A stretch of 64,000 bases of DNA. Origin: an uncultured Candidatus Saccharibacteria bacterium. GTDB lineage: Bacteria > Patescibacteriota > Minisyncoccia > Portnoybacterales > UBA2143. Shown here one piece after another: positions 17,316 to 31,976 of this stretch. The notes below the pieces were generated by a model. The model was not told the origin of the DNA, ran no database searches, and saw only the letters and a program-made list of their open reading frames with translations. Location of the stretch: positions 11,332 to 75,331 of the forward strand of contig CAZQUN010000002.1 in assembly GCA_964596615.1 (NCBI GenBank), given 5' to 3'. Position numbers and translations under genes: made by a program. Numbering within the stretch: the first letter of the stretch is position 1; every line of letters begins with the position of its first letter.

Positions 17316-17909
17316 ATGACCAAATCTAAAATTCTTCTCTATCTCTGCCTTTTGTATATCTTCGGTGTCTTTGCTTATTCCCTGGTTGAGAGTCCTCAAC
17401 CTTTTTTATTTAACCAAACAGACAAAGAAACCGTTTTAAAGGGAATCATTGTTGGTGAACCAGAAAAAAGAATTAACCAACAGAAGTTTGAATTTAAGGC
17501 AGAAAACATTGAGGGGAAAGTCTTGATTACCACAGAACTATACCCAAGTTATTTTTATGGAGACGAATTAGAAGTTTTTGGTAAATTACAGGAACCAGCA
17601 GTTTTTGAAGATTTTGATTATCGTCAGTATTTAAGAAAAGATAAAATTTATTCAGTTATTTATTATCCTCAAATTAATCGGCTGGCAGGAAACCAGGGTA
17701 ATTGGTTTTATCAAAGGATTTTTAACTTCAAAGACAAATTGAGAAATATTATTGAACAAACTTTACTTCCTCCTCAATCGTCTATTTTAAAAGCAGTTTT
17801 TCTGGGAGACAGATTTAGCCTTTCAGATGAATTAAAAGAAAAATTAAATATTACTGGTACTCGGCATATTGTTGCTATTTCCGGGATGCATATACCTATA
17901 ACTCCATAG
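17316..17909 (+). pseudogene. comEC: ComEC N-terminal fragment (DUF4131 region through the start of the competence domain), interrupted by an inserted element
   Basis: Ends ...GTRHIVAISGMHI, which is the conserved HLLAISGLH entry into the ComEC competence domain. The continuation is found at 31248 after the 13.4-kb insertion. Confidence 0.8.
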
Positions 17910-17916
17910 CTACAAT

Positions 17917-18960
17917 TTAAGAAAGAATATTGTATTCATCCTCTTTAGCGTCTTCTAGGATTTTTAAAAATTCGTCAAATTCCTTCTTCTTTTTGTTTAT
18001 TATATCCTCTAACAATTCTACTTTTAAATCTCTTAAACCTTTGGGCATATTTGGATCTAGATCAAAACCAATTAAGAAAATATCAATAATCTTAATTTTG
18101 GGATTGTGTCTTTCTATAATCCCTTTATATCCTAAAACTTGGCCAATATGTTCTGCTTTTATTTTTATGATAGGCCTTTTTAATTCAGCTAAAACAATAT
18201 GGTTTTCGTCTTGCAAGTACATCTTAACTATTAAATCTGGTTTTTTCCCGAGTTCGGGGTCTTTCTTTATGTTTTGAGCAAGATAATCACTTAATGGTTT
18301 ATTGCTTTTTACTAAATCATAGTTATTATCTAGTAACCATAGGTTATTTTCTAACAGTTTATGAATCTCTCTTTCTTTCGTATCTTTTTGTTTCATTAAA
18401 CTTTCTAATAATTTAATTATTGATATTTTCTTTTGAATAAGTTCCGCTATAGAATTAATTTGATGAATTTTTAATTCATTTAAAAGCGAAACGAAGCCAG
18501 TCAATTCATCTCCACCTGCCTCAGATAATTTTTTTAACAAAAAATCAAGATTTTCTGCCTTGATTTCATAAATTCTTAGTCCTAGTTTGTCCAACGCCTC
18601 AAAACTTGCCTCGGTTAAATTGCTTATATTTTTATTTGATAGTATTTTTTGCAGAAAATCGGGATCACTTTTTAAGGTTGCATCTATATTTTTTAAAATT
18701 TCTACTTCAGAGGATGTCATCTTTTTAATAGGCCATTGATGTTCTTTTGTGGTTTCTGACTCAATAACGCTTTTTAACATACTCCAATCTTTAAGATGAA
18801 GATTAAAAAATTGTTGTTTTCCTCCGGGTTTTCCTTGCAATGTTCTGTTCATAATTATGTAATTTCTATCTGCGTGTTCCATATCGCTAACCACGGAAAA
18901 TGACGTAAATCCGCTAGACCATTTCTTTGTTATTTTTTTAATTACTTTAAACTTACTCAT
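17917..18960 (-). CDS. PD-(D/E)xK nuclease, Shedu (SduA)/DUF4263-like
   Basis: C-terminal NLWLLDNNYDLV...KKPDLIVKM...VLAELKRP...IGQVLGY gives RecB-like motifs D, ExK and QxxxY. Confidence 0.4.
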   Translation of the reverse strand: MSKFKVIKKITKKWSSGFTSFSVVSDMEHADRNYIIMNRTLQGKPGGKQQFFNLHLKDWSMLKSVIESETTKEHQWPIKKMTSSEVEILKNIDATLKSDPDFLQKILSNKNISNLTEASFEALDKLGLRIYEIKAENLDFLLKKLSEAGGDELTGFVSLLNELKIHQINSIAELIQKKISIIKLLESLMKQKDTKEREIHKLLENNLWLLDNNYDLVKSNKPLSDYLAQNIKKDPELGKKPDLIVKMYLQDENHIVLAELKRPIIKIKAEHIGQVLGYKGIIERHNPKIKIIDIFLIGFDLDPNMPKGLRDLKVELLEDIINKKKKEFDEFLKILEDAKEDEYNILS

Positions 18961-19159
18961 AAAAAATTTGGTTTATTTCAGATGGCTCGTTTATATGCGA
19001 ATTTCAACAATTGACTTTTCTATATCTCTATCCTACCACAACAATATCTATTTTTAATATTTAACTCACATCCTTAATACACCGGCCTGTAGGGCTATAG
19101 CTACAGCTTTAGAGAAATGATTGCATTTTTATCTTAGTATCCAATACTGAAATGGTTTA

Positions 19160-19597
19160 TTAATCATTTTTTATTTTTGTTTTTGAGTTTATTCCGACTC
19201 CTGGCCCATATTTACCCATTGGTACATCATGTAGTTCATTTGGGAATTTATCAATGAGTTTTTTTATTATTTTCTTTGAATAGTCGTCTTTTGCATCCCA
19301 TTCTGTGGTAAGGTGATGGTAGCTACGATGAGGACCATGTCTCTCTAAATAATTAACAAGCCTTGTCTTTCTTCGCCAAGCTTTTATCTCTCGCCATAAA
19401 AAATAAATTAATAGAAGCCAAAGAAAAAGAAATATGATTACAACATACGATTTCCAGGATTGTGGAAATAAAATAATCCATTTATTGATTGTTGATGGGA
19501 GGATAAAAATTAGAAGTATAACTACTATATGTATTGGTTTATTCTCAACTATTTCTAGAATTTCTTTTATATTTTTAATGTTATTATTTTCATTCAT
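19160..19597 (-). CDS. hypothetical membrane protein (3 TM) with a basic cytoplasmic tail
   Basis: ORF and hydropathy only. Confidence 0.35.
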   Translation of the reverse strand: MNENNNIKNIKEILEIVENKPIHIVVILLIFILPSTINKWIILFPQSWKSYVVIIFLFLWLLLIYFLWREIKAWRRKTRLVNYLERHGPHRSYHHLTTEWDAKDDYSKKIIKKLIDKFPNELHDVPMGKYGPGVGINSKTKIKND

Positions 19598-19770
19598 GAT
19601 TGTATATTTAAATTAGTCACAATAATCGATTTTTTTACATCTCTAAGCTTTATATTACCATGGTGATAGATATTTTCAATATTCTTAATCTACATACCTA
19701 TGACTCTATAGCTACATAACCTGCAGAAAACAATAAAATAGGACAATTAAAATTGATCAGACTTATCAAC

Positions 19771-19799
19771 TTGCTGTGTAAAGAATTGTAAAGTATAAT
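19771..19799 (+). promoter_or_regulatory. sigma70-like promoter upstream of the methyltransferase gene
   Basis: TTGCTG, 17-nt spacer, TATAAT, 7 nt before the ATG region. Confidence 0.45.
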
Positions 19800-19805
19800 G
19801 GAGAC

Positions 19806-20936
19806 ATGAACAACAAAATAAAATATTATACAGCTCAAGAGCTTGCAAAAGAATTAAGGGTGAACATAATGACAATCTATCGTTATGTTAAGGCTGGCAA
19901 GCTTAAGGCCCATAAAATAGGTAAGGAATTTAGAATCTACAAAGAAGAATTTGATAGATTTTTAAACGAGACAAAAATTGATAAAAGAGAAAAAAATCCT
20001 AAGAAAGTTAAAAAATACGGCCTCGATTTAGGTAAACGAGGTATTTATGATATTAGAAATCCATTAAATGATTTGACTGGTCGAGAATGGATCTATTTTT
20101 TAAACTCTATTCGTGTTACCGATTTTTCTACTGATGAGAATGAGTTGGAGCTATGGAAATACTTACAAAATTCTTTGATAGAAACTAGATATTCGACAAA
20201 TGGCAAAGATTCATTCGCTCATGATTTAAGAAAAATACATCCTTCGCCAAAGCCACCACAATTGATGAAAGAATTGATAGAATTTTTTACAAAAAGAAGT
20301 GGTTATATTTTAGATCCATTTATGGGGGTGGGGGGAACTCTACTTGGAGCATCGTTATCTAAGAGAAAAGCTGTTGGGATCGATTTGTGTAAAAATTATA
20401 TTGATGTTTATAAAAAAGCTACAGAAAAATTAAACTTAAAAGAACAAACTACTATAGTAGGCGATGCTAGAAATATCGACAAGTATCAACAAACAAAATC
20501 TAAGCTTTTTGATGCCATTATTACAGACCCACCATATGCTAATTTACTATCGAAGAAACGTACTGGAGGGGACAGAACAAAAAAGATAGGCACATCTACG
20601 CCCTTCACAGATAATCCACTAGATCTGGGGAACTTTGACTATAAAGATTTCCTGCCTGAATTTAGAAAAATAATAGAAAGACTCTTATTAAGCTTAAAAC
20701 CGAAAGGATATTTTATTACATTCATAAAAGATCTTCAGTCAAATGAAACGCACCATAATATGTTACACGCAGACATAGTAAACGAGTTAATAAAAATATC
20801 TGATCTTTCCTACAAAGGATATAAGATTTGGTACGATAAGACAATTAACCTATATCCTTATGGTTATCCTTTCTCTTTTGTGGCTAATCAATTACATCAA
20901 TTTATCCTAGTATTTAGAAAAGAGAGAAAAAAATGA
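19806..20936 (+). CDS. DNA methyltransferase (N6-adenine or N4-cytosine) with an N-terminal excisionase-type HTH
   Basis: N-terminal MNNKIKYYTAQELAKELRVNIMTIYRYVKAGKLKAHKIG (HTH_17/Xis-like). Then motif I DPFMGVGGT and motif IV ITDPPY. Confidence 0.7.
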   Translation: MNNKIKYYTAQELAKELRVNIMTIYRYVKAGKLKAHKIGKEFRIYKEEFDRFLNETKIDKREKNPKKVKKYGLDLGKRGIYDIRNPLNDLTGREWIYFLNSIRVTDFSTDENELELWKYLQNSLIETRYSTNGKDSFAHDLRKIHPSPKPPQLMKELIEFFTKRSGYILDPFMGVGGTLLGASLSKRKAVGIDLCKNYIDVYKKATEKLNLKEQTTIVGDARNIDKYQQTKSKLFDAIITDPPYANLLSKKRTGGDRTKKIGTSTPFTDNPLDLGNFDYKDFLPEFRKIIERLLLSLKPKGYFITFIKDLQSNETHHNMLHADIVNELIKISDLSYKGYKIWYDKTINLYPYGYPFSFVANQLHQFILVFRKERKK

Positions 20937-21973
20937 GATTTATAGGGAATAAACAAAAGCTATTAGAATTTATACTTTCTAAGATCAGAGAGCATAAGAT
21001 TGGTCGTGGGATATTGATTGATATATTTTCAGGAACAACTAATGTCGCGAAATTTTTTAAGAGATTGGACTATCCGGTTATCTCGAATGATCTTTTATGT
21101 TTTTCGTATATATTCCAACGAGCGTATATCCAAAACAATCGACAACCTCTTTTTAGGGGATTAAAGAAGATAGTTAATCAGTCTTCTCTATCTTCTGTTA
21201 TTGAGTGTTTAAATAGCCTAAAAGGTGTTGAGGGTTTTATGTACAACAATTTCACAAAAGGGGGCACTTCGAATAAAGAATATAGTAGGAATTATTTAAG
21301 TGAAGAAAATGCAAGGAAAATTGATGCCATCAGAGATAAAATCGAGCAATGGAAAATAAAAAAAATAGTCACAGAAGAAGAATACTTTATTTTATTAACC
21401 TCTTTGATTGAGGCAGTCCCATATGTATCTAATATTGCTGGAACCTATGGGGCTTTTTTAAAAATAGACGATCCCAGGAAATATAAACCTTTAACTTTAA
21501 AGAATCCTGAAATTATTATAAATAAAAATAAAAATTTTGCTTTCAATGAAGATGGGAATGAACTAATTAAAAAAATAAAAGGCGATGTTCTTTATATAGA
21601 TCCGCCATATAATTCAAGACAATACGCTCCCAATTATCACCTTTTAGAACACATTGCAATATGGGATAAAAAGGTTATGGATAATAAAACAGGATTAAGA
21701 GACTATAATAAACAGAAATCCTTATACTGTGCTAAAAATAAAGTTTACCATGTGACTCTGGATCTAATCGAAAAAGCCATAAACAAAGCCCAGGTAAAAC
21801 ATATCTTATTTAGTTATAATAACGAAGGATTATTAGAGGATTATCAAATTAAGGAAATCTTTGATAAGTTTGGAAAAGTTTATTTTTATAAAAAATCATA
21901 TCCCAGATTTACACATCGAAACAACCACAGAAAAAATACTGAAGAATATCTATTTTATTTATCTGTTCAGTAA
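20933..21973 (+). CDS. Dam-family (D12 class) N6-adenine DNA methyltransferase
   Basis: DIFSGTTNV (motif I), YIDPPYNSRQYAPNYHLLEH (motif IV and downstream Dam box). Start overlaps the upstream MTase stop. Confidence 0.7.
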   Translation: MRFIGNKQKLLEFILSKIREHKIGRGILIDIFSGTTNVAKFFKRLDYPVISNDLLCFSYIFQRAYIQNNRQPLFRGLKKIVNQSSLSSVIECLNSLKGVEGFMYNNFTKGGTSNKEYSRNYLSEENARKIDAIRDKIEQWKIKKIVTEEEYFILLTSLIEAVPYVSNIAGTYGAFLKIDDPRKYKPLTLKNPEIIINKNKNFAFNEDGNELIKKIKGDVLYIDPPYNSRQYAPNYHLLEHIAIWDKKVMDNKTGLRDYNKQKSLYCAKNKVYHVTLDLIEKAINKAQVKHILFSYNNEGLLEDYQIKEIFDKFGKVYFYKKSYPRFTHRNNHRKNTEEYLFYLSVQ

Positions 21974-23335
21974 TTTTTCTATTTTATTTAAAAATTTAGC
22001 TAAAGTCTTAAATATAAATACCTCACCTTTTTCTGTTAAAACAAAAATTACATGTTCATTTGTTATTTGTTTGCCGTATAATACTATCCCTCTTTTAAGC
22101 TTATAGCTGGGATATAAAGGTTTTAAGCATTCGGTCTCAAAAGCTAGAAAAGTCTTTAAATCTTTTAATGCTTTTTTTAGTTTAGCTGTTATCTTGCCTT
22201 CCAAAGAATAAATTTCTTTATTGTAGTCATCTCTTAAAACTAAATCTGGTAAATTAACTATCCCTTTTCTTTTATTCCTCTCAATATATTTATGAACAAC
22301 AATTGGATTCCCCTTCAAATCATATAAATATCCTCTTTCGCAACCAGCGTGATTTTCATATATTGGGATAATATCTGTGGTACGCAAAGAAAGCATATGA
22401 AGCAAGATGGTGGCTAATTTTTCTGATTTATTCTCATATTTCCAATATGATTCAGGGAGATCCATTTTAGGAATTTCCAATTTTTCTAGTTCGATATGCA
22501 AGGCATTCGCAATAAGAATGAATTTATTCGAGTGCGATACATGTCTTTGTTTTAGTCCGTGATGTGTGATTATTATTCTACCCTTCCATCCTAATATTCT
22601 CAGCGTCTTCGAAATTAAAGTTAAAGCACCAATATTTGGATCATGAGATAGACTATCGCTTTTAATTAATCTCCCGCTTATATAGATGGCGTTATTAGTC
22701 TTTTTGATTAATATAGGAACATTACCTCTTGGTGGTTTTCTCATTTTATTTTTCACTTCGATTACTTCTTTAATCGATTTAAATGGGGTGGGTTTAAAAA
22801 GGCTACTGCTTTTTCCAAACATCTCAACGCCTATCGTCAATAATAACTTAGTCCCAAATATATTTGTGTCTGTCGGCTTTCTGCTCTCCTCAACTTGTAA
22901 ATTATATAACATGATTTTTCTTATGGTTGGATAATAAATATCTATAAAAACAAATTTTGATGCTCTTTGAAAAATTCCTGTATTTCTTGACTCAATATCT
23001 CCTGTTTTGGTTTCTTCAACGACTAAAATAGGTTTTTGCGTTGGGCTAGGAGGACCAATCCCTTCATATATTAGAAAATCCACAAAGCTGCTATCGCCGC
23101 TTACGATCTTTAACAGAATATCAGATCTTCCTCTAATTCTTACATTATCTATCCTATACAAATGAGCAAAAATACCCTTATTAAAAATAGGGTTAATTAC
23201 TGCGTTGCCTTTAGCTCGAAGATTTAAATTCTTCTGTTCAGCATAAAGCCCAAGTATTTTTTCTATAATCTCCGGCTTAGGCCGTTCCTCGCATAAAATC
23301 CAAGTTTTTATTTTATTTGTGGTAGACATATTCAA
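21959..23335 (-). CDS. putative Type II restriction endonuclease (PD-(D/E)xK-like core near the C-terminus)
   Basis: Convergent with and overlapping the Dam-like MTase; PDLVLRDD...EIYSLEGK fits PD...ExK; no other recognisable domain. Confidence 0.4.
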   Translation of the reverse strand: MNMSTTNKIKTWILCEERPKPEIIEKILGLYAEQKNLNLRAKGNAVINPIFNKGIFAHLYRIDNVRIRGRSDILLKIVSGDSSFVDFLIYEGIGPPSPTQKPILVVEETKTGDIESRNTGIFQRASKFVFIDIYYPTIRKIMLYNLQVEESRKPTDTNIFGTKLLLTIGVEMFGKSSSLFKPTPFKSIKEVIEVKNKMRKPPRGNVPILIKKTNNAIYISGRLIKSDSLSHDPNIGALTLISKTLRILGWKGRIIITHHGLKQRHVSHSNKFILIANALHIELEKLEIPKMDLPESYWKYENKSEKLATILLHMLSLRTTDIIPIYENHAGCERGYLYDLKGNPIVVHKYIERNKRKGIVNLPDLVLRDDYNKEIYSLEGKITAKLKKALKDLKTFLAFETECLKPLYPSYKLKRGIVLYGKQITNEHVIFVLTEKGEVFIFKTLAKFLNKIEKLLNR

Positions 23336-23413
23336 AATTAAACCTCGCTTTTACTTAACCTTAACAATTTTTTATAACAGCGTCTATATCTTGGCTACTA
23401 TAGACTATCAATA

Positions 23414-23443
23414 ACAAAAGCCCGGCAATGGGCTTTTCTTTCA
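23414..23443. terminator. bidirectional intrinsic terminator
   Basis: AGCCCGGCAATGGGCT hairpin flanked by A-run and T-run. Confidence 0.5.
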
Positions 23444-23501
23444 ACTTTGAAGATATTAGTTACTTAAATAAAAGGGCTTTACTTTTTATTTAATGATAAA
23501 T

Positions 23502-24107
23502 TTATCTATTTTCAGTGGGTCCGAGTTTTTTTATATGATCTCTTGGTCTAACGAACTTACTTCTATTCAAAACAACAATTTCATAATTTCTAGCCATAGG
23601 TTCGCCAAAATGAATTTTTATATATTCTCCTAATCCAAACGGAAAATTTTTATCGTAGTTATTTATGCCGTAGCCGATGGGGAATTTGCTAAAAATTGGG
23701 TGAAAAGCGCTGAACTCGTAGCCAACTGGAAGCCAAGATGATCGCCTCGGGTGATATGGATGAAGATATAAAATATCCCAGTGTTTGCCATTTTCGCAAA
23801 CGGTCTCATAAATATCAATAGGGCCGTTAACTTTGCCGCTTTTTGTAGATCCTAATCGATGGTACATAAGACCAGTACCACACTTGCATCTCAATCTATT
23901 GATATATTTCATCTCGCCAATAGCGCCGTTAACAGGAATAGAATTAGCGGCGATGCGACCAAAGTCCTGTTCACTGTCTATCAAAGAATCACAATCCCTT
24001 CCCTTTATGGCTAATGGATATAAACCGGGGATCTCTTTTTTTAGGTCTTGCTCCTGATCTTCAAGGGACTCATCAATAAATTTTTTCTTAAATAAATTAA
24101 AAAACAT
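23502..24107 (-). CDS. hypothetical protein (201 aa)
   Basis: ORF only; Cys-containing; no recognisable motif. Confidence 0.35.
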   Translation of the reverse strand: MFFNLFKKKFIDESLEDQEQDLKKEIPGLYPLAIKGRDCDSLIDSEQDFGRIAANSIPVNGAIGEMKYINRLRCKCGTGLMYHRLGSTKSGKVNGPIDIYETVCENGKHWDILYLHPYHPRRSSWLPVGYEFSAFHPIFSKFPIGYGINNYDKNFPFGLGEYIKIHFGEPMARNYEIVVLNRSKFVRPRDHIKKLGPTENR

Positions 24108-24110
24108 ATA

Positions 24111-24344
24111 TTAGATCTTCGTCTTTTTTTCTAAACTATTTAATTCTCGATATAGATCCTTTAATTCTATTTCCAGTAAGCCAGAAAGTTCTTTTAAATT
24201 AACGACTTCTCTCCTTATGTCTCTTTTTAAGATGCGGAGAATACCGAAGGGATAAAGTAGTTCTGATATCCTTTTATTATATTCTTCTCTTTGCTTTTCC
24301 AAGAACATAATTTTCCGTTTTACTTTTTTAATTCTATTATTCAT
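24111..24344 (-). CDS. hypothetical coiled-coil protein (77 aa)
   Basis: ORF only. Confidence 0.3.
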   Translation of the reverse strand: MNNRIKKVKRKIMFLEKQREEYNKRISELLYPFGILRILKRDIRREVVNLKELSGLLEIELKDLYRELNSLEKKTKI

Positions 24345-24384
24345 GTTTTAAGCTAACTCGTTGATATTTAGGAGATGGATAGAA

Positions 24385-24528
24385 TTATTTACACCAGTAT
24401 TCACAACCTTGTTCAGTCCTTTGAGCGGCATTGTAGGTTCTGTAATCGGTAATAAAAATCCAGATCGAGAAAACTACCAAAGTCGTGACTCCTAATAGAA
24501 GTAGAATTAATTGTAGCCAGTCCTTCAT
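24385..24528 (-). CDS. small hydrophobic peptide (47 aa) ending GCEYWCK
   Basis: Hand translation MKDWLQLILLLLGVTTLVVFSIWIFITDYRTYNAAQRTEQGCEYWCK; one TM helix; not in the ORF track (shorter than 60 aa). Confidence 0.3.
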   Translation of the reverse strand: MKDWLQLILLLLGVTTLVVFSIWIFITDYRTYNAAQRTEQGCEYWCK

Positions 24529-24828
24529 GGTTTTTTACAATGGGAATACACAAAGCCCCGCGCTAGCTAGGCCTTGCGGCCCTATAGCCCTTTCGGGATA
24601 TAGCCCATCACTGAGTTGCTGAACGCGGGGTCCAGTATCAGTGATGGGTCTTTTACGCCATGCCCTAAAAGGGTTTAGGTCATTTAGTTGTTATTTATAA
24701 CTTACCACAAGTTTTATTGGAATGGAAGCGATAAAAGGGGATATCTAATATTTTAAACAAATATTGAAAGAAGGCTTAGAACGGGATAAAATAAAGGAAA
24801 TTACAATGATAATTATTCTAACATTACG

Positions 24829-25695
24829 ATGATCACAGGAGTAAAATTTGATTCAGGAGTAAAATTTGATTGGGAGAATCTTTCCTCAGAAAATCTTAAA
24901 ATCGCCAGGAAGGTTATTAAGGTTATTTCAGATTTTTTACAATTTCAGCCAATGGGCAGATTCTCACCTTATACTGTAATACCATTACAAAGATTCGAAG
25001 AAAAACGGATATGTATAGACGATATAAACATGGTATTGGATAAAATAGATGATATAAAGGTTAGTAACGACGAATTGCGCTATGAAATAAAATATCATCC
25101 ACAACGAATTCTAAGGTGGTTTTATGGAAATTTTACCGATGATGGTTTATTTAACGTCCCACCAGAAAAGATACTCAAAAATTACATTTTTCTACAAATA
25201 AGTTCGATAAGCGATCTTCGTCGAGTACAGGGCTTGATCGATGAAAGACTTAAAATAGACTCCAGGCAAAAAGAAGAAATACTATCTCCTAATTATCTAA
25301 AATCAATACACCTTATTACTAAGTCTCTTGAGCCGACCGATGTGATATTCCTAGTTCTTGATGAGCGTTTTGAATATCCTATAAGAAGCGTAGTATGGCA
25401 CAAAGGCAATCCTACATATGTCAAAAAACTATATGATATTGCCTATTTTGTGGATGTTCCAAATAAAAAAGTTAATTATGGTAAAAATATAGCTAATAGC
25501 ATTAACAACGGGTTATTTAGAAAAAGGCCAGTGGCAGAATATATGGAAACAAATAAATTCAAAAAGCCAACGCTTGTACAAAAATCAGAAAATAAAACTT
25601 TGGTTTTAAAAAATGAAATTCTTGTAGAAACAGGTCTTATTCATAATAAAGTTCCGAAACAATATCAATATCTTTATATAGATAAAACAAGATAG
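24829..25695 (+). CDS. hypothetical protein (288 aa)
   Basis: ORF; followed by a terminator. Confidence 0.4.
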   Translation: MITGVKFDSGVKFDWENLSSENLKIARKVIKVISDFLQFQPMGRFSPYTVIPLQRFEEKRICIDDINMVLDKIDDIKVSNDELRYEIKYHPQRILRWFYGNFTDDGLFNVPPEKILKNYIFLQISSISDLRRVQGLIDERLKIDSRQKEEILSPNYLKSIHLITKSLEPTDVIFLVLDERFEYPIRSVVWHKGNPTYVKKLYDIAYFVDVPNKKVNYGKNIANSINNGLFRKRPVAEYMETNKFKKPTLVQKSENKTLVLKNEILVETGLIHNKVPKQYQYLYIDKTR

Positions 25696-25734
25696 TGTTC
25701 GTATATCATTAAACTTGGGAGTTGGTCGTATGCT

Positions 25735-25762
25735 AAAAACCGCTTTAATAAGCGGTTTTTTT
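25735..25762 (+). terminator. intrinsic terminator
   Basis: AAAAACCGCTTTAATAAGCGGTTTTTTT. Confidence 0.65.
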
Positions 25763-25830
25763 CATTTGTTCTTCGACTGGTCGGATAGATATAATAATAG
25801 CAAATAAATTACTGATCTAATAAAAATTAT

Positions 25831-26091
25831 ATGACCCAAAAACAAATGGATGATACAAAAAATTATTTTCACAGCCACGACATTGGACTGGTTGCTTATT
25901 TGCTTTGTCGAAATTTTGAATTAGTCAGCCTGGATAAAGTCATGAAAAATAAGGTGCTTTTCATTCTGAAAAGGACCAATAGGATAGACATAGAAATAAA
26001 GAAATATTGGGATTTTAATTCATTAGTTGATGCCCAAACTTATTTTAATCAACTAAAGAGGTTAAAAAATCAAATCTTTAGTTCAGAGTGA
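25831..26091 (+). CDS. hypothetical protein (86 aa)
   Basis: ORF only. Confidence 0.3.
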   Translation: MTQKQMDDTKNYFHSHDIGLVAYLLCRNFELVSLDKVMKNKVLFILKRTNRIDIEIKKYWDFNSLVDAQTYFNQLKRLKNQIFSSE

Positions 26092-26343
26092 CTTATGTCG
26101 AATAACAAAATACAAAACGATTAATAGATTTATGACTAGCCAACAAAAGTTTAAAGTTAAAATCAAATTCAATAAAAATATCTCCAAAAAAGAAAGAAAG
26201 AAAAGGCTGCGAAATGTTTTCGATACATTGTTCTCTAAAGGAGATAGTAAAGAAACTAAACTGAACCTTGGTACTGGTTTGGGGTTCCGGCAGGACATGC
26301 AAACTCCCTGGAAACCAGAGCTAGTACTGGGGCTTACGCAGGG

Positions 26344-27141
26344 ATGCCAAAAAGAAGAATGATCGACGCTAATAGATTATATGGGGATACAGAACTGATT
26401 GAAAATATCGGTAAGGATGGGTTGTTGCTCTATATTCTACTTTGGTCAATGTCAGAGGATTTCGGTGCTTTCGAGAATAACCCAAAGCAAATCCATTATG
26501 AGTCAAAAGGGGTAAGATTGAGTGTGAAGAAAATACAAGAATATTTAGAAACACTAGAAAGATTAGGAAAAATTATTCTTTATAGAGTCGATGACAAAGA
26601 ATACTACTGGCTTAAGAATTTTTTTAAGTATCAGAAATTATCTAATGCTTCGCTTCCCAATCTACCTCTACCTGAATGGATTAAGTATAAAGAGTGTCAA
26701 TATCCAGGCGGTAGAAAGTATGCTCAATATAATGTAGATACCGAGAAACTACCTGTAGCCTACATGAAGCCTGTACGAGGCATAGTCGAAAAAGAGAAGC
26801 GAAAGAGAAGCGAAGATAAAAGAAAGGAAAATAAAAGAAGCGAAGAGGGAAAAAAGTTGTCATTCGACAATAATAACGAGCAGTCGTCTTTAAATAGATC
26901 TAATAATATCGCTGAACCGCTTACTTGTAAATCAAAGGAATTCAAAGTTAGAGAGATAGCCGAAGAATTAGGAGAAGTCGATCCGATCAAATCTACCAAA
27001 GTTTGGTTAGGGAAATATGACTACTCTTTAATTAAAAGAACCTGGGAAATTTATGGAAAGCGAACTGAAACTAAAACAATTAAAAACTGCCCCGCCTATT
27101 TCAATAGTTTACTAGAAAAATTACATAGTGAGCGAAAGTAA
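26344..27141 (+). CDS. hypothetical protein, possible replication/regulatory function (Lys-rich linker)
   Basis: ORF lying between the cargo genes and the terS-like gene; no confident motif. Confidence 0.35.
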   Translation: MPKRRMIDANRLYGDTELIENIGKDGLLLYILLWSMSEDFGAFENNPKQIHYESKGVRLSVKKIQEYLETLERLGKIILYRVDDKEYYWLKNFFKYQKLSNASLPNLPLPEWIKYKECQYPGGRKYAQYNVDTEKLPVAYMKPVRGIVEKEKRKRSEDKRKENKRSEEGKKLSFDNNNEQSSLNRSNNIAEPLTCKSKEFKVREIAEELGEVDPIKSTKVWLGKYDYSLIKRTWEIYGKRTETKTIKNCPAYFNSLLEKLHSERK

Positions 27142-27156
27142 ATCCTATTTATTTTT

Positions 27157-27666
27157 ATGAGTAAAGGCGAAAAAATTAAACTATCACCCCAGCAAGAATT
27201 GTTTTGCCAGCTTTATATTAAAGATTATTTTGGCAATGGAGTTAAATCATACATCATTGCCTATAAGAAGGAATTTCCAATAGATGTTGAGTATCGATAT
27301 TTAAATCCAGACGAAAAAAAACGATATGATTCCTATGCTGTCCGGGCCGCTCAACTATTAAGAAACCTTAAGATGGTTAAGCGCATAGGAGAATTACTCG
27401 ATGAGCATATTGAGGATGCAGTAGTAGATAGAGAAATGATAGCGGTTATTCTCCAGAAGGAAGATTTGACCGCGAAGATGAGGGCGATCAGCGAATATAA
27501 CAAAGTCAAACAACGAATCATTTCTAAATCTGAGATTGAGAAAAAAGTAATAAAGGTCGACAAAACAAGTAAAGAGTTTAAGGAGTATAAACAATGGCGA
27601 TTAGAGAAGAGAAAATTAAAAGAAGAGAGCCAGGAGAGGTTGGCCCGAAAGAAGAAAAAGAAATAG
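27157..27666 (+). CDS. phage terminase small subunit-like protein
   Basis: LSPQQELFCQLYIKDYFGNGVKSYIIAY resembles the conserved N-terminal TerS (Terminase_2) motif L-x-QE-FC-x-Y. No terL, portal or capsid genes are present. Confidence 0.5.
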   Translation: MSKGEKIKLSPQQELFCQLYIKDYFGNGVKSYIIAYKKEFPIDVEYRYLNPDEKKRYDSYAVRAAQLLRNLKMVKRIGELLDEHIEDAVVDREMIAVILQKEDLTAKMRAISEYNKVKQRIISKSEIEKKVIKVDKTSKEFKEYKQWRLEKRKLKEESQERLARKKKKK

Positions 27667-28009
27667 TAAAGGAGTACTTTAATCGGTTTCGTCTATCTAA
27701 GGAGCAGCAAAGGGAAGTCCTTGTGAGAATGATTGCCGAGTTGCGATTGGATATAACGATTTCTTTAGAGGACCAGTTTTGCTTAAAAAGGAACAAGAGA
27801 AATAAAAAAACCGTTTAGGCTATTTAGTTTCTCATATTTGATTCTTGCTTGCTTATTCCGTCTGCCTATTTCTTAAGAAGCTCTCTAATTCCTTTTCAGA
27901 AATACGACATGACTTTAATAGATGGTTATATTTATCATAAAAAAAGAAAGAATAAAATCAATTAAATATACCAATATGATACCAACAAAAACCCATAAAA
28001 TAAACTTTT

Positions 28010-28195
28010 TCATTTTCTTTTATTTAAAAACTTTTCTAATTCCTTTTTCTCGATTCTAAAATTCCGCTCAGTTAATTTAATCGCTTTTAATTTACCCGAA
28101 CGAATATAGCGCCAGACGGTTTCGTTGCACACATCTAGTAATCCAGCGATCTCTTTCGGGGTATAGTATCCTTTTTTGAGTTTTGTTTTGGCCAT
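28010..28195 (-). CDS. excisionase/Xis-family HTH DNA-binding protein
   Basis: YYTPKEIAGLLDVCNETVWRYIRSGKLKAIKL is the HTH_17 pattern; divergent from the recombinase gene. Confidence 0.7.
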   Translation of the reverse strand: MAKTKLKKGYYTPKEIAGLLDVCNETVWRYIRSGKLKAIKLTERNFRIEKKELEKFLNKRK

Positions 28196-28333
28196 GTTTT
28201 CATTATAGGAGTCGAGTAAGAGAAAGTCAACTTTTGTCTACTCTATCCATAGTCAACAACACTTGACAGGGGATAACTGGTAAGTTAAAATTAAGACAAG
28301 TATAGTCAACAAGAGTCAACACAATAATCTTTT
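28196..28333. promoter_or_regulatory. xis-int divergent intergenic region with five AGTCAAC-type repeats
   Basis: AAGTCAAC, TAGTCAACAA (twice), AGTCAACAC and an inverted TTGACAG. Confidence 0.4.
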
Positions 28334-29911
28334 ATGACAAGCATGTCAAAAATTAAAGCAGTCGTATATGCTAGGGTTAGTTCTGATGAACAGAAAAAGA
28401 AGGAATTTAGTATTCCCAAAATTCAGATTCCTGAATGTATCAATTATATCAAAGAAGAGGGTTGGCTGTTTGCTGGATCCTATGTGGACGAAGGCTTTGA
28501 TTGTAATGCTTTTGAAAAAAGAGCCGAACTTCAAAGAATGCTTAACGGAGAAACGGATAATTATGATGTGGTTGTCGTTTGGAGCTATGACAGATTAGTC
28601 GGTGATGATGAGAATACCCGGGGCCAAATCTACCATATTTTAGACAGAAACAAAAAACAGATAACTTCGGTCAGACAAAGAGCAAGGATAGTCCCAATTG
28701 ACCAGTATGACCCTAAGAGCTTAGATGTCGCTCAAAGGAGACAAATTACTGATATAGGGGTCAGTTTTGATAGAAAGATTAGGAGGGAGAGGTTTATGGA
28801 ATCAAGAGCCAAGACAGTGGCTAATGGCAGGCATATCTCAGAGCCGCCGTATGGTTATAAACTGATTAGGAAGGTTCACCCAGAGGATAAAAGGAGAACT
28901 ATTGGTTATCGATTAATCAATGAGGATGAATCATTAATTTTAGAAAGGATATTCAAAGAGAGGGCTACTGGCAAGAGTTGTAGGAGGATTGCTTTTGGCC
29001 TAAACGATGATGGAATCAGAACTAGAAAGGGTAAAAATTGGACCAACGCCAGGATAACCTATCTTTTAAAAAATTCTTATCCTTGCGGTCTAATTACTTG
29101 GAATAGGACTACCCAGAGGAAATATGGCGACGAACAGGTAAGAACCTACATCCCAGAAGAAAAATGGCAGTATTTCCCGGTTAATACGGCGGTAGAGAAG
29201 TATTATAAGCCGATTATTAGTAAAGAGTTGTTTGATAAAGTTCAGGAGATTAGACAAAGAAATAGAACAGTGTTAAGAGGAAGCGCTTCGTATAGTAGTA
29301 ATTTTTTGGCCGGTCTTCTGAAATGTCCTGTCTGCGGTCGGCCAATGGTAGAAGCTAGTTTTCGTAAACTCAAGAAAAGCATTCTAAGTTATTATATTTG
29401 TTCTTCTCGTCATAATGACGGGGTTTGTAAGAATAAGAAAAGGATAAGAGCGCCGGAATTGAAAGAAGCAGTGCTTAAAGAGGTAATAAAATACCTGAAT
29501 AATCCAGGCGAGTTTAGAGAATACCAAAAGCAGCAGAAAAAAGATGTGCTTAAGAGAGCGGAGAGAGAGGTACTTATCTATGAGAAAAGATTAGCGAAGA
29601 TGAGATCAAGGATTCATTCGCTGAATTTAAAGTTTATAGATGGAAAAATCAAGGATAGTTATTACAAGCAATTACTGGCCAGTTTAGAAGAAGATGAAGA
29701 AGGATTAAAGAAAATTGTTTCTAGAGAAAAAGAAAAGGTAGAGGATTTTAAGAAAAAAAAGGGGACTATAACGAAGTTAAAAGTATTAAGCAGGGATTTT
29801 CGAAGAAGATTTATGGAGCTGGATAATGTTAAAAGAAAACATATTTTCCATACTTTAATTAGGGAGATAAAGGTTCAGGATGATGAGGTAAAAATATTTT
29901 TTAAGGTTTGA
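28334..29911 (+). CDS. large serine recombinase (resolvase/invertase-type catalytic domain plus recombinase and zinc-ribbon domains)
   Basis: N-terminal AVVYARVSSDEQ catalytic Ser motif; 525 aa; C-terminal CPVCGRPM...C zinc ribbon and coiled-coil. Confidence 0.85.
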   Translation: MTSMSKIKAVVYARVSSDEQKKKEFSIPKIQIPECINYIKEEGWLFAGSYVDEGFDCNAFEKRAELQRMLNGETDNYDVVVVWSYDRLVGDDENTRGQIYHILDRNKKQITSVRQRARIVPIDQYDPKSLDVAQRRQITDIGVSFDRKIRRERFMESRAKTVANGRHISEPPYGYKLIRKVHPEDKRRTIGYRLINEDESLILERIFKERATGKSCRRIAFGLNDDGIRTRKGKNWTNARITYLLKNSYPCGLITWNRTTQRKYGDEQVRTYIPEEKWQYFPVNTAVEKYYKPIISKELFDKVQEIRQRNRTVLRGSASYSSNFLAGLLKCPVCGRPMVEASFRKLKKSILSYYICSSRHNDGVCKNKKRIRAPELKEAVLKEVIKYLNNPGEFREYQKQQKKDVLKRAEREVLIYEKRLAKMRSRIHSLNLKFIDGKIKDSYYKQLLASLEEDEEGLKKIVSREKEKVEDFKKKKGTITKLKVLSRDFRRRFMELDNVKRKHIFHTLIREIKVQDDEVKIFFKV

Positions 29912-30361
29912 TTAGTTTTGTCCCGGTGTTGTAAGGAGAAAGTCATATCCAGTATGGATAACTATCGCCGCGATAAGTCCTAGAACAGGCCTTTTTCTTT
30001 TTATAAAATAGCAGATAATCATAGCGGTAATAATCTGGAGTATTGTAGGGGATATACGGACGCTTAGACTATGAACATCTCCTCTGGCAAGGTGCCGAGT
30101 AAAAGATTCTATTCCAGACCAACCCAGTCCAAAGGAAATGCTATAAGGGTTTTCTATTTTCCAACTTTTGATAGATAGGAACTTGCCTAGTTCTTCAGAA
30201 AGTCCGTTAAATAAAGATTCTGTCAGGTGGGCCGATAAAAGAGGCAAGCTACCTAAAGCGTTAAGGCCTGTTATCCTGATAATAAATTCAAAGACTAGGA
30301 ATAGTATTCCGAAGCCGATTATGCCTGCGAGAAAAGCGATCAGAGTATTAATTAGACGCAT
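29912..30361 (-). CDS. CPBP-family (CAAX protease / Abi) intramembrane metalloprotease
   Basis: Multi-TM; conserved C-terminal ...AAIVIHTGYDFL motif region of the CPBP/Abi family. Confidence 0.6.
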   Translation of the reverse strand: MRLINTLIAFLAGIIGFGILFLVFEFIIRITGLNALGSLPLLSAHLTESLFNGLSEELGKFLSIKSWKIENPYSISFGLGWSGIESFTRHLARGDVHSLSVRISPTILQIITAMIICYFIKRKRPVLGLIAAIVIHTGYDFLLTTPGQN

Positions 30362-30409
30362 TGTTATTTCAGGTTATAATTTACTGAGATGACAAAGTTC
30401 AGATATTTT

Positions 30410-31162
30410 TTAAGGTTTAGCCGAAAAAGATATTGTGTCCTGTCTTTGTTCCAATTTCTTTTCTAAAACCTTTGATATTCCATATTTATACAAATCCTGT
30501 CCAAGCTTTGTTATTGAAAATCGATTCCCATTCCTAAAAGCTATTCCGCTAGCAGAACACAAAGCTTCCATTTCCCAATAATCAAAATCTTTATTTGTTT
30601 CTTTCAATAGTTTGCTAAGCTCATTTATTTTACCGCCACTATTTAAGTAAAACTTAAATTCTGCTCTTGATAAAATAGCTAGATAATTAAATGTTGACTC
30701 TTGAAGGCTTTTCAAACAACTGACAAGCGAGGTAAAACGCTCCCAGTCAATTTTTTTTGATATATAGGCACTGAATAGGTAGGCTAAAATCCTAGATTTT
30801 TTTACTGAGTCTAAGTCTTCGATTATAACTAAAATTTGCTCGGTAATTTTATTTCTGAACTTTTTGTTCTTCTTAAAATTATGTCTAAATTCTTTTAAGG
30901 CTTCTTTGTCTACTTTGTTTGACTTAAACTCACTAAGAAATATCAAAAATTTTTTAATAAAAAATCTTTCTTTCACGGCAACGCCAGTTTTAATAATAGC
31001 AACTAGTGTTTTTACGACCGGAGCCTCTTTTAATAAATCAACATCGAGAAGATTGTCGAGTCCAATTTCGGCATAATCTTTGCTAACATCTAAGCTAGGA
31101 TTAATAATCTCTTTTGAAATATTATTCATTAAAATGTTGTTCATTCTTTTTTTGAGAATCAT
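30410..31162 (-). CDS. hypothetical protein (250 aa), possibly defence-related partner of CPBP
   Basis: ORF; Lys-rich; no confident motif. Confidence 0.35.
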   Translation of the reverse strand: MILKKRMNNILMNNISKEIINPSLDVSKDYAEIGLDNLLDVDLLKEAPVVKTLVAIIKTGVAVKERFFIKKFLIFLSEFKSNKVDKEALKEFRHNFKKNKKFRNKITEQILVIIEDLDSVKKSRILAYLFSAYISKKIDWERFTSLVSCLKSLQESTFNYLAILSRAEFKFYLNSGGKINELSKLLKETNKDFDYWEMEALCSASGIAFRNGNRFSITKLGQDLYKYGISKVLEKKLEQRQDTISFSAKP

Positions 31163-31247
31163 ATGATTAATTGTGTTTAATTGTTATTAATGATAGTCGA
31201 ATCTTGGAAGAGTAGCAAGTGTTGATTGTTGCCATGGAGTAAGCGGT

Positions 31248-31976
31248 ATGCATATGATTATTATGACCCAAGTTCTTTTATTCTTGGCCTTGGCAATTGG
31301 CCTTTGGCGAAACCAGGCCTTTTATTTTGTCCTAATTATCTTAATTCTTTATATTACCATGATTGGCGCTCCGGCTTCGGCAGTCAGAGCCGGAATTATG
31401 GCCGGATTACTTTTATTAGCTCAAAAAGTTGGTCGCTTACGGAGTGCCAACAGAGCAGTCGTTTTTGCTGCGACAATTATGCTCCTAATTAATCCGCTTT
31501 TATTAAAATCTGATGTTGGTTTTCAATTATCTTTTGTGGCAGTCCTGGGCATTATTTATTTAAAACCCATTTTTGATCAAAAAATATCCAAGTGGCCCAA
31601 CCCATATTTTCTAAAAGATATTTTAACAATGACTTTGGCTGCCCAATTATCAACTCTGCCTATTTTAATTTTTCACTTTGGCCGCCTTTCTTTAATTTCT
31701 CCTTTAGCTAACTTATTAATCGTCCCTTTATTGCCTTTAATAATGATATCAGGAATAATTTTAGTTTTTTCCGGTTTAATTTGGCTGCCTTTGGCTAAAA
31801 TTATTGCTTGGCCAGCCTGGCTTTTATTGAGTTATGTTATTAAAATTATTGATTATCTTTCATTGTTTCCAATACCAGCAATTGAATTTGAAAAAGTTTC
31901 TTTAATAATCCTATCTCTTTATTACCCAATCCTATTATTTTTTATTTGGAGAAATATAAAGGAGCAGGTCTCTTAG
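31248..31976 (+). pseudogene. comEC: ComEC competence-domain fragment (continuation of 17316..17909)
   Basis: MHMIIMTQVLLFLALAIGL...GAPASAVRAGIMAGLLLLA...GFQLSFVAVLGI matches Competence-domain (PF03772) TM signatures. The ATG is part of the ATGCATAT junction repeat. Confidence 0.8.

Follow-up and report, generated by a model that had tools for sequence, protein, structure and literature searches.

Integrase half-sites inside a large serine recombinase island in comEC of an uncultured Candidatus Saccharibacteria bacterium, and their probable origin as former island ends

The 64,000-nt stretch analyzed here (the window), from contig CAZQUN010000002.1 of an uncultured Candidatus Saccharibacteria bacterium, raises the question of why a 23-nt sequence that forms one end of an integrative island should recur almost unchanged 1.8 kb inside that island. 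The sequence, ATACCTATAACTCCATAGCTACA, stands exactly at 17892-17914 on the + strand (copy 1) and again, with 2 mismatches (21/23 to copy 1), at 19694-19716 on the + strand (copy 2), 1802 nt away; a third, diverged copy (copy 3) lies between them. An initial annotation had noticed the repeat and proposed that it delimits a cassette, left either by two elements integrated in tandem into the same site or by cargo exchange through the same recombinase. Our analyses indicate that copy 1 is an arm of the attachment site used by the large serine recombinase (LSR) encoded in the island and that copies 2 and 3 are arms of the same kind. The island is probably an accretion mosaic of ends from related elements, in which copies 2 and 3 would be disarmed former attL junctions.

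The comEC island and its attachment sites

The island spans 13,362 bp (17894-31255) and splits comEC at the codons for ISGMH|MII. Its G+C content is 29-35% across 17.9-31.2 kb, compared with ~38.5% on both sides. At its left, the comEC N-terminal fragment (17316..17893, +; Pfam DUF4131 plus Competence positions 2-34) ends in the attL core ATGCATAT (17886..17893), and at its right the same 8-mer forms the attR core (31248-31255) at the start of the comEC C-terminal fragment (31248..31976, +; Pfam Competence positions 31-265). This C-terminal fragment opens with an in-frame ATG inside the core. Excision in silico, joining 17316-17893 to 31256-31976, gives a single 432-aa open reading frame (ORF) with an unbroken Competence domain (2-265/270). 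The gene for the LSR lies inside the island (28334..29911, +), and its product carries Resolvase, Recombinase, and Zn_ribbon_recom domains, all above the Pfam cut-offs.

Inverted-repeat arms around a core are the normal architecture of a serine-integrase attP, and the ends of the island can be assembled into such a site. The P half-site of attR (31226..31247, − strand) scores 32 on a matrix built from the arms of this island family and resembles the P arms of four related loci (L002, L014, L004, and L025), and copy 1 forms an inverted repeat with it. The reconstructed attP reads ...TTGTTGCCATGGAGTAAGCGGT-ATGCATAT-ACCTATAACTCCATAGCTACAA..., and its P arm matches the reverse complement of its P' arm at 19/30 positions, an imperfect inverted repeat. 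This makes copy 1 the P' half-site in the live attL (17892..17914, +; matrix match at 17894-17915). From the symmetry GGTATG-CA-TATACC, the crossover dinucleotide is probably CA, at 17889-17890. The shared core, the inverted arms, and the restored comEC frame thus bear out the earlier proposals that this is an integrative element and that copy 1 is the element-side arm of its attL.

The repeat itself was also correctly located by the initial annotation, and its chance expectation is zero: no other match with 3 or fewer mismatches to ATACCTATAACTCCATAGCTACA occurs on either strand of the 64 kb, and no match arose in 100 dinucleotide-preserving shuffles of the window (0/100). When the arm matrix was scanned over the window and the other loci fetched for comparison, the window gave only three strong sites, 17894-17915 (+), 19696-19717 (+), and 31226-31247 (−), all of them in the island. 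One could suppose that the similarity is fortuitous, or that the motif is a generic host repeat or regulatory motif unrelated to the island, and two arm-like copies in L025 do lie outside the present boundaries of the island there. Those two fossil-like copies, however, sit directly beside comEC with comEC-like flanks, and they are the sole exception to arm-free host DNA. The motif is not widespread outside mobile elements, as the window's 50 kb of host DNA contains no copies and there are no strong sites in the host flanks of L004, L007, L009, L024, L026, L037, and L038. Given, in addition, that the opposite end of the island forms an inverted repeat with the motif, we regard an origin by chance or as a generic motif as extremely unlikely.

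The third copy is real, but it had been placed at 19095-19105, which holds an 11-mer, CTATAGCTACA, whereas the 16-mer quoted for it, GGGCTATAGCTACAGC, occupies 19092-19107. Read as a full half-site, copy 3 spans 19085-19106 (+; GCCTGTAGGGCTATAGCTACAG), with its outer half CTATAGCTACAG intact and its inner half lost. It scores 10.7 bits on the arm matrix, which is within the noise of shuffled windows. We nevertheless regard it as real for two reasons. The exact 11-mer has only two occurrences in the window, one each in copy 2 and copy 3 (the shuffles expect 0), and an intact arm in L025 has on its left a sequence 84% identical to the 81 nt left of copy 3. The motif GCTATAGC is palindromic, as had been claimed. 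The suggestion that copy 3 is a regulator-binding site fits less well than a decayed half-site inherited with its flank.

Internal half-sites here and in related islands

The divergently oriented genes for a membrane protein and a helix-turn-helix (HTH) methylase are separated by 208 nt, and copy 2 lies in this interval, ~90 nt before the start codon of the methylase gene. The match of copy 2 to copy 1 begins and ends sharply at the edges of the arm, and copy 2 keeps all positions that are invariant among live arms. The sequence immediately to its left is different in kind. The core-equivalent (19688..19695) reads ATCTACAT where the live sites have ATGCATAT, so that TA stands in place of the inferred CA, and the 22 nt left of it are not P-like, matching the P arm at 6/21 positions. 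In anchored alignments this flank is weakly comEC-like, with p values of 0.04-0.05 against the comEC sequences of the window and of L022 and 0.0035 against that of L025. No clear partner half-site, B-type or P-type, is recognizable beside copy 2. The mismatched core-equivalent and the non-P-like flank together make copy 2 a lone P' half-site that is attL-like rather than attP-like. Intact tandem integration, which would have left a full attP inside the island, was rejected given the 6/21 P-arm matches. A P-arm-like stretch nearby, TTACCATGGTGATAG (19655-19669), is 14 nt out of register and inside the spacer of a promoter-like site, and we judged it to be a chance match.

Related islands place these arms in context. 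Homologues of the island LSR at 45-87% identity were found only on metagenomic contigs of the candidate phyla radiation (CPR) type, and every informative relative is also inserted in comEC (L004, L002, L014, L025, L021, and L026-L031). In L002, L014, L004, and L025, P arms lie beside ATGCA[T/C]AT and comEC; the L004 junction, for example, reads GTGCTATAGCGATAGCGGT-ATGCATAT-comEC. L022, the left end of the L002 contig, belongs to a relative whose LSR is 72% identical to that of the island, and its attL reads comEC-ATGCATAT-ACCTATAACTCTATAGCTACAG, with an arm that is one base off each of copies 1 and 2 (22/23). The search of related elements that had been proposed as a check thus recovered the motif at their ends, in the L022 attL arm and four P arms. 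By sequence comparison, the arm is a conserved recognition element of the comEC island family. What stands beside the arm varies, as the gene contents of the window, L022, and L025 bear out: the window has the nuclease and membrane-protein genes described below, L022 has SLFN_AlbA_2 and two ORFs, and L025 has Trypsin_2. This arm-adjacent cargo differs in every relative and includes SLFN/AlbA_2, Trypsin_2, and SocA_Panacea proteins, among others.

Two of these relatives also contain extra arms. The right end of L002 is a mirror image of the arrangement in the window, with an internal P arm, accompanied by ~45 nt of the conserved leader of the right end, that lies 1.67 kb inward of the true P arm. 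Alignment with L014 (87% DNA identity over the LSR gene) places this internal arm within a clean 936-nt insertion comprising one SEC-C-domain gene, the leader, and the arm, which is 47 nt upstream of the SEC-C gene start. We rejected the possibility that the L002 internal site is a degenerate attR flanked by comEC sequence, as 17/33 positions match without gaps but the anchored shuffle test gave p values of 0.08-0.77. L025 carries a complete island plus two extra P' arms (a and b), 22/23 identical to each other, that flank one HAD-hydrolase gene just upstream of comEC; both adjoin terminator hairpins, and the sequence left of arm a is similar to the comEC arm of L025 itself (p<0.0005). Live sites have a conserved crossover core, which is absent from copy 2 and likewise lost at L025 arm a and at the L002 internal site; of the four internal sites, three have TA in place of CA at the center. 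In L022, at the place equivalent to copy 2 (2735-2745, ~30 nt upstream of the HTH-methylase start), the 8-mer ATACCTAT matches the start of the repeat (its first 8 nt) and may be what is left of an internal arm that has been almost erased.

These features bear on whether the internal sites still function. LSRs need matching central dinucleotides to religate the strands that they cut. With TA facing CA at the center and no clear partner half-site, excision between copy 2 and attR should fail. From the mechanism of LSRs, then, copy 2 has probably been disarmed; it could still bind one integrase subunit, and, to judge from its sequence, it may still be bound or used.

The contrary proposal is that copy 2 belongs to a live tandem cassette resembling the staphylococcal cassette chromosome (SCC), in which the LSR and a directionality factor excise either the inner element (copy 2 × attR) or the 1.8-kb cassette (copy 1 × copy 2) and thereby exchange cargo site-specifically. 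The arm of copy 2 is almost perfectly conserved, down to all invariant positions of live arms, and, as in SCC-like cassettes, an extra att-type repeat in direct orientation bounds a cargo module that has no recombinase, with analogues in L002 and L025. Extra arms thus occur in three different islands, each bounding 1-3 genes at the island periphery, and the junction module is conserved beside unrelated genes. There is also precedent among LSRs, in that SCC-like defence cassettes bounded by additional att sites undergo excision in every combination (PMC11470126) and 16/32 elements of the enterococcal cassette chromosome (ECC) type have more than one attR (PMC6222049). The structure of copy 2 argues against such activity, for it has neither the 8-bp core of live attL and attR, reading ATCTACAT with the inferred change of CA to TA, nor a recognizable second half-site. 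Moreover, the 1.8-kb excision would require recombination between two attL-type sites, which canonical LSRs, to our knowledge, do not carry out. No circular or empty-site sequence was found, and scans of IMG/VR viral contigs with three motif patterns gave 0, 4, and 1 matches, at the level of chance and none with high-scoring arms or with LSR or comEC homologues. We consider a live cassette possible but unlikely. As to the tandem elements or cassette exchange first proposed, the idea of more than one element at the same site holds in a broad sense, but a copy 2 that lacks the core and any clear partner makes an intact tandem or present-day exchange unlikely.

Origin of the internal half-sites and the cargo between them

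The interval bounded by copies 1 and 2 consists of two single-gene units, a nuclease gene between copies 1 and 3 and a membrane-protein gene between copies 3 and 2. The 347-aa product of the first (17917..18960, −) is a predicted PD-(D/E)xK nuclease in which D242, E259, and K261 of the D...ExK motif are invariant. Its resemblance to Shedu is weak: the Pfam SduA_C match (E = 4.8e-5) scores 24 bits, under the 27-bit Pfam cut-off, so that the curated threshold for Shedu is not reached, and the PADLOC SduA match has an E value of 2e-4. SduA_C was matched at E<0.01 by 19/25 homologues of the nuclease (best, 5.5e-6), and the C-terminal domain, modeled at pLDDT 80-94, has Shedu 8ti8 as its top fold match in the PDB, also weak (E = 0.011, TM 0.28-0.35). 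The label Shedu-like is thus weakly supported by sequence and model. No arms were found near nuclease homologues in loci L007-L011, L038, and L039, which indicates that the nuclease gene moves independently of the comEC island family; nor were arms found near HTH-methylase homologues in L024 and L037. The second gene (19160..19597, −) encodes a 145-aa predicted membrane protein of unassigned family, with weak PADLOC matches to one-transmembrane (1-TM) effectors (E ~1e-3) and no Pfam or PHROG match. No relatives of the window's own cassette were found, and the plasmid database gave no DNA match for the 1.8 kb. The cassette of the initial annotation is sound insofar as copy 2 is an arm of the same kind and orientation, bounding a nuclease gene and a small membrane-protein gene; it is the Shedu likeness of the nuclease that is weak. 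From its gene content and position, the 1.8-kb interval is most likely later-acquired defence-type cargo.

Between the nuclease start codon and copy 3 lies a conserved non-coding leader (18986..19066), 84% identical over 81 nt to L025 832-912 (blastn E = 2e-19). In L025 it precedes the HAD-hydrolase gene and an intact arm, with neighboring genes unrelated to the window's nuclease. Two different islands thus share this leader ahead of cargo genes that are unrelated to one another, and it has no clear promoter. A structured RNA or known RNA family at this junction was rejected, as Rfam gave no match and the RNA fold was no better than shuffles (z = 0.16).

A counterpart of these duplications is found at the right end of the island, where a 31-nt relic of a second LSR gene (30388..30420, +) preserves the last 10 codons and stop (DDKVQIFFKV*). 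The relic is 81% identical to the 3' end of the island's own LSR gene (counterpart at 29879-29909) and 90.6% identical to that of the L002 LSR gene. It lies between two right-end cargo genes, one for a 149-aa membrane protein (29912..30361, −), whose homologues in L014 and L002 stand beside the LSR gene and outside the internal arm, respectively, and one for a 250-aa protein of unassigned function (30410..31162, −). Remains of a second element are thus present in the island, as had been supposed, and they imply at least one recombination between two elements. The 31-nt sequence forms an imperfect direct repeat flanking the 149-aa gene, so that here, as with the 23-mer at the left end, a duplicate of a neighboring conserved feature brackets cargo.

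We propose the following history. The LSR inserted the island into comEC through an attP of the form P arm-ATGCATAT-P' arm, and since that integration copy 1 is the P' arm of attL. Copies 2 and 3 would be the P' arms of former left ends from the same element family, buried as new left-end modules, each a P' arm with its cargo, came to lie between the old end and comEC. Copy 2 would then mark a former left end directly upstream of the HTH-methylase operon, and the order of additions would be the membrane-protein gene first and then the Shedu-like nuclease gene. Such modules could have been added by tandem or nested co-integration followed by deletion, by nested integration into a pseudo-site, or by homology-anchored grafting of an integrated end from another genome.

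Several observations sit uneasily with this history. Copy 2 is 91-96% identical to live arms and its left flank is at most ~45-50% comEC-like, yet a neutral fossil arm should have decayed like its flank; either the flank was never comEC or the arm has been kept by selection. Weak to moderate comEC similarity is confined to ~40-60 nt next to the arms at copies 2 and 3 and L025 arms a and b, and an interpretation of the leaders as decayed comEC coding sequence was rejected, since local alignments against 300 nt of comEC were mostly not significant for these four sites. The outer flank of the L002 internal site likewise does not resemble comEC significantly (p 0.08-0.77). None of the internal P' arms has a P-type partner arm next to it, although simple tandem integration into attL would leave an internal P-O-P'. 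In L025 the extra arms lie upstream of the intact comEC N-terminal part and the true junction has no P' arm (1-1020 and 1600-1660), an arrangement that the simple model does not explain. The number of informative relatives, moreover, is only five.

Another difficulty is that the 81 nt left of copy 3 recur at 84% identity beside L025 arm b despite different neighboring genes, which hints at a conserved, possibly functional junction module. Such a module, with a leader of ~80-130 nt and a P'-type half-site, might instead serve as a recombination or expression site of a cargo-capture platform, to which single-gene defence modules are added at the island ends by the live att site. We think this distinctly unlikely; if true, it would be a serine-recombinase counterpart of integron or SCC cassette arrays, in bacteria dependent on ComEC for DNA uptake.

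Selection on the arm could also reflect regulation, with an integrase subunit or another island protein bound at copy 2 controlling the divergent membrane/nuclease and HTH-methylase promoters and so coupling cargo expression to the state of the integrase. The position of copy 2 in the divergent region is suggestive, as it lies 14 nt from a promoter-like site (TTGAAA-16-TAATAT with TG; 19652..19679, −) directed leftward into the membrane and nuclease genes; the placement of the L002 internal arm just ahead of its SEC-C gene is comparable, and the copy 2 arm is conserved beyond its flanks. The promoter-like sites found in the consensus scan, however, are no more numerous than shuffles would give, and position relative to genes varies: L025 arms a and b lie by terminator hairpins, and L022 has only the 8-mer remnant upstream of its methylase gene. 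We know of no LSR that regulates transcription from an isolated half-site, and a regulatory half-site seems to us very unlikely as an explanation of copy 2.

Known systems and other genes of the island

The closest known systems are the composite islands of SCC/SCCmec and ECC, in which LSRs likewise insert elements into one conserved gene and leave several att-type repeats in direct orientation. The intervals between these repeats hold variable, often anti-phage cargo that lacks its own recombinase, and the LSRs CcrAB and CcrC make the multi-att arrays, mobilizing tandem ccr-less cassettes in trans (PMC11470126; PMC6222049). The comEC island differs from SCC in its target, the disrupted interior of comEC rather than the 3' end of rlmH; in having a single LSR rather than CcrA and CcrB; and in its host, a Patescibacteria-type genome. 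SCC junctions, furthermore, all keep the core TATCATAA, and the cassettes have been excised experimentally, whereas copy 2 has one half-site and no core. By analogy the island resembles SCC in outcome, but its internal site does not retain the core, which is the defining trait of that family.

Accretion is also seen in streptococcal integrative and conjugative elements and the cis-mobilizable elements derived from them (ICE-CIME), where a new element integrates beside a resident one, so that three att-type repeats result, along with a module that lacks a recombinase and can degenerate into fixed cargo. The comEC island shares the extra att-type repeat and the recombinase-less module. ICE-CIME systems, however, use tyrosine recombinases and have a full identical core in attL and attR; in the island, a serine recombinase is at work and the arm alone is repeated.

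In its splitting of a host gene whose reading frame is restored by removal, the island is like the Listeria comK phage and Bacillus SPbeta in spsM, serine-integrase elements whose precise excision restores the gene (PMC7397523; PMC5499854). Those elements are not known to have internal duplicated half-sites, which the island has. The island is also, at 13 kb, without structural phage genes, carrying replication-initiator-like, terminase-small-subunit-like (TerS-like), restriction-modification, and defence-type genes only. Integron cassettes, finally, are similar in being promoter-proximal modules of 1-2 genes between repeated site-like sequences, with the newest by the fixed site. Integrons use the tyrosine recombinase IntI and folded single-stranded attC hairpins; the island has a linear LSR half-site, no IntI, and a junction without attC-like folding (z = 0.16), and no Phage_integrase domain was detected by Pfam in its proteins. 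We therefore rejected an integron cassette array.

A limited literature search found no paper describing comEC-targeting LSR islands in Patescibacteria. In a comparison with a phage database, all phage serine integrases were <30% identical to the island LSR. The family appears as a group of serine-recombinase islands (LSR identity 45-87%) that share the conserved ISGMH|MII codons as their target and would reversibly split comEC, the DNA-uptake channel on which these bacteria are thought to rely. This splitting echoes the comK "active lysogeny" of Listeria and may be biologically important. If the accretion history is right, it shows how small islands in the ultra-small genomes of CPR/Patescibacteria-type bacteria could gain anti-phage cargo, with modules stacked at their ends and old integrase half-sites remaining as datable scars. 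Were the inner sites active instead, tandem cassette mobilization of the SCC type would extend far beyond Firmicutes. In practical terms, metagenomes could be searched simply for such islands and their cargo by means of the arm matrix combined with the comEC target, and the attP/attB pair is a candidate for a new orthogonal integrase system.

The use of comEC as a target takes more than one form. A clade of LSRs at 53% identity (P0008; L026-L031, e.g., L026 12299-12345) is inserted ~24 nt upstream in comEC, at TCGCACAT|TGTT (RHIV codons), which suggests that comEC offers two related cores to different LSR clades. In L017 (5440-5678), a relative at 45% identity, the island has the reverse orientation to comEC: its LSR gene adjoins the N-terminal comEC fragment but is encoded on the other strand.

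The remaining genes of the window's island begin to the right of copy 2 with a restriction-modification module (19806..23335) consisting of two methylases and a restriction endonuclease (REase): the HTH_17-N6/N4 methylase (19806-20936, +; Pfam), a D12 methylase (20933-21973, +; Pfam), and a type II REase (21959-23335, −; Pfam; PADLOC REase_II 1.8e-60). In an independent assembly of the same strain (Logan SRR24302413), contig L005 breaks at ~19601, ~90 nt before copy 2, and another Logan contig, L001, begins at ~26929; these breaks could reflect strain heterogeneity over the restriction-modification region or merely a coverage gap. Farther right are genes for a replication-initiator-like protein (26344-27141, +; PHROG 1.4e-13) and a TerS-like protein (27157-27666, +; PHROG 1.4e-8). 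Just upstream of the LSR gene, a 61-aa HTH_17 excisionase-like protein is encoded (28010..28195, −; PHROG "excisionase and transcriptional regulator" 5.7e-10; Pfam HTH_17 on the identical Logan gene), which by homology is a candidate directionality factor or regulator. The combination of replication-initiator-like, TerS-like, excisionase-like, and integrase genes without structural phage genes recalls phage satellites. Cargo on the minus strand sits at both ends of the island. A 48-nt inverted repeat, 75% complementary between 19929-19976 and 28013-28060, is explained by two paralogous HTH_17 domains, one at the N terminus of the methylase and the other in the small excisionase-like protein, which are 48% identical in amino acid sequence.

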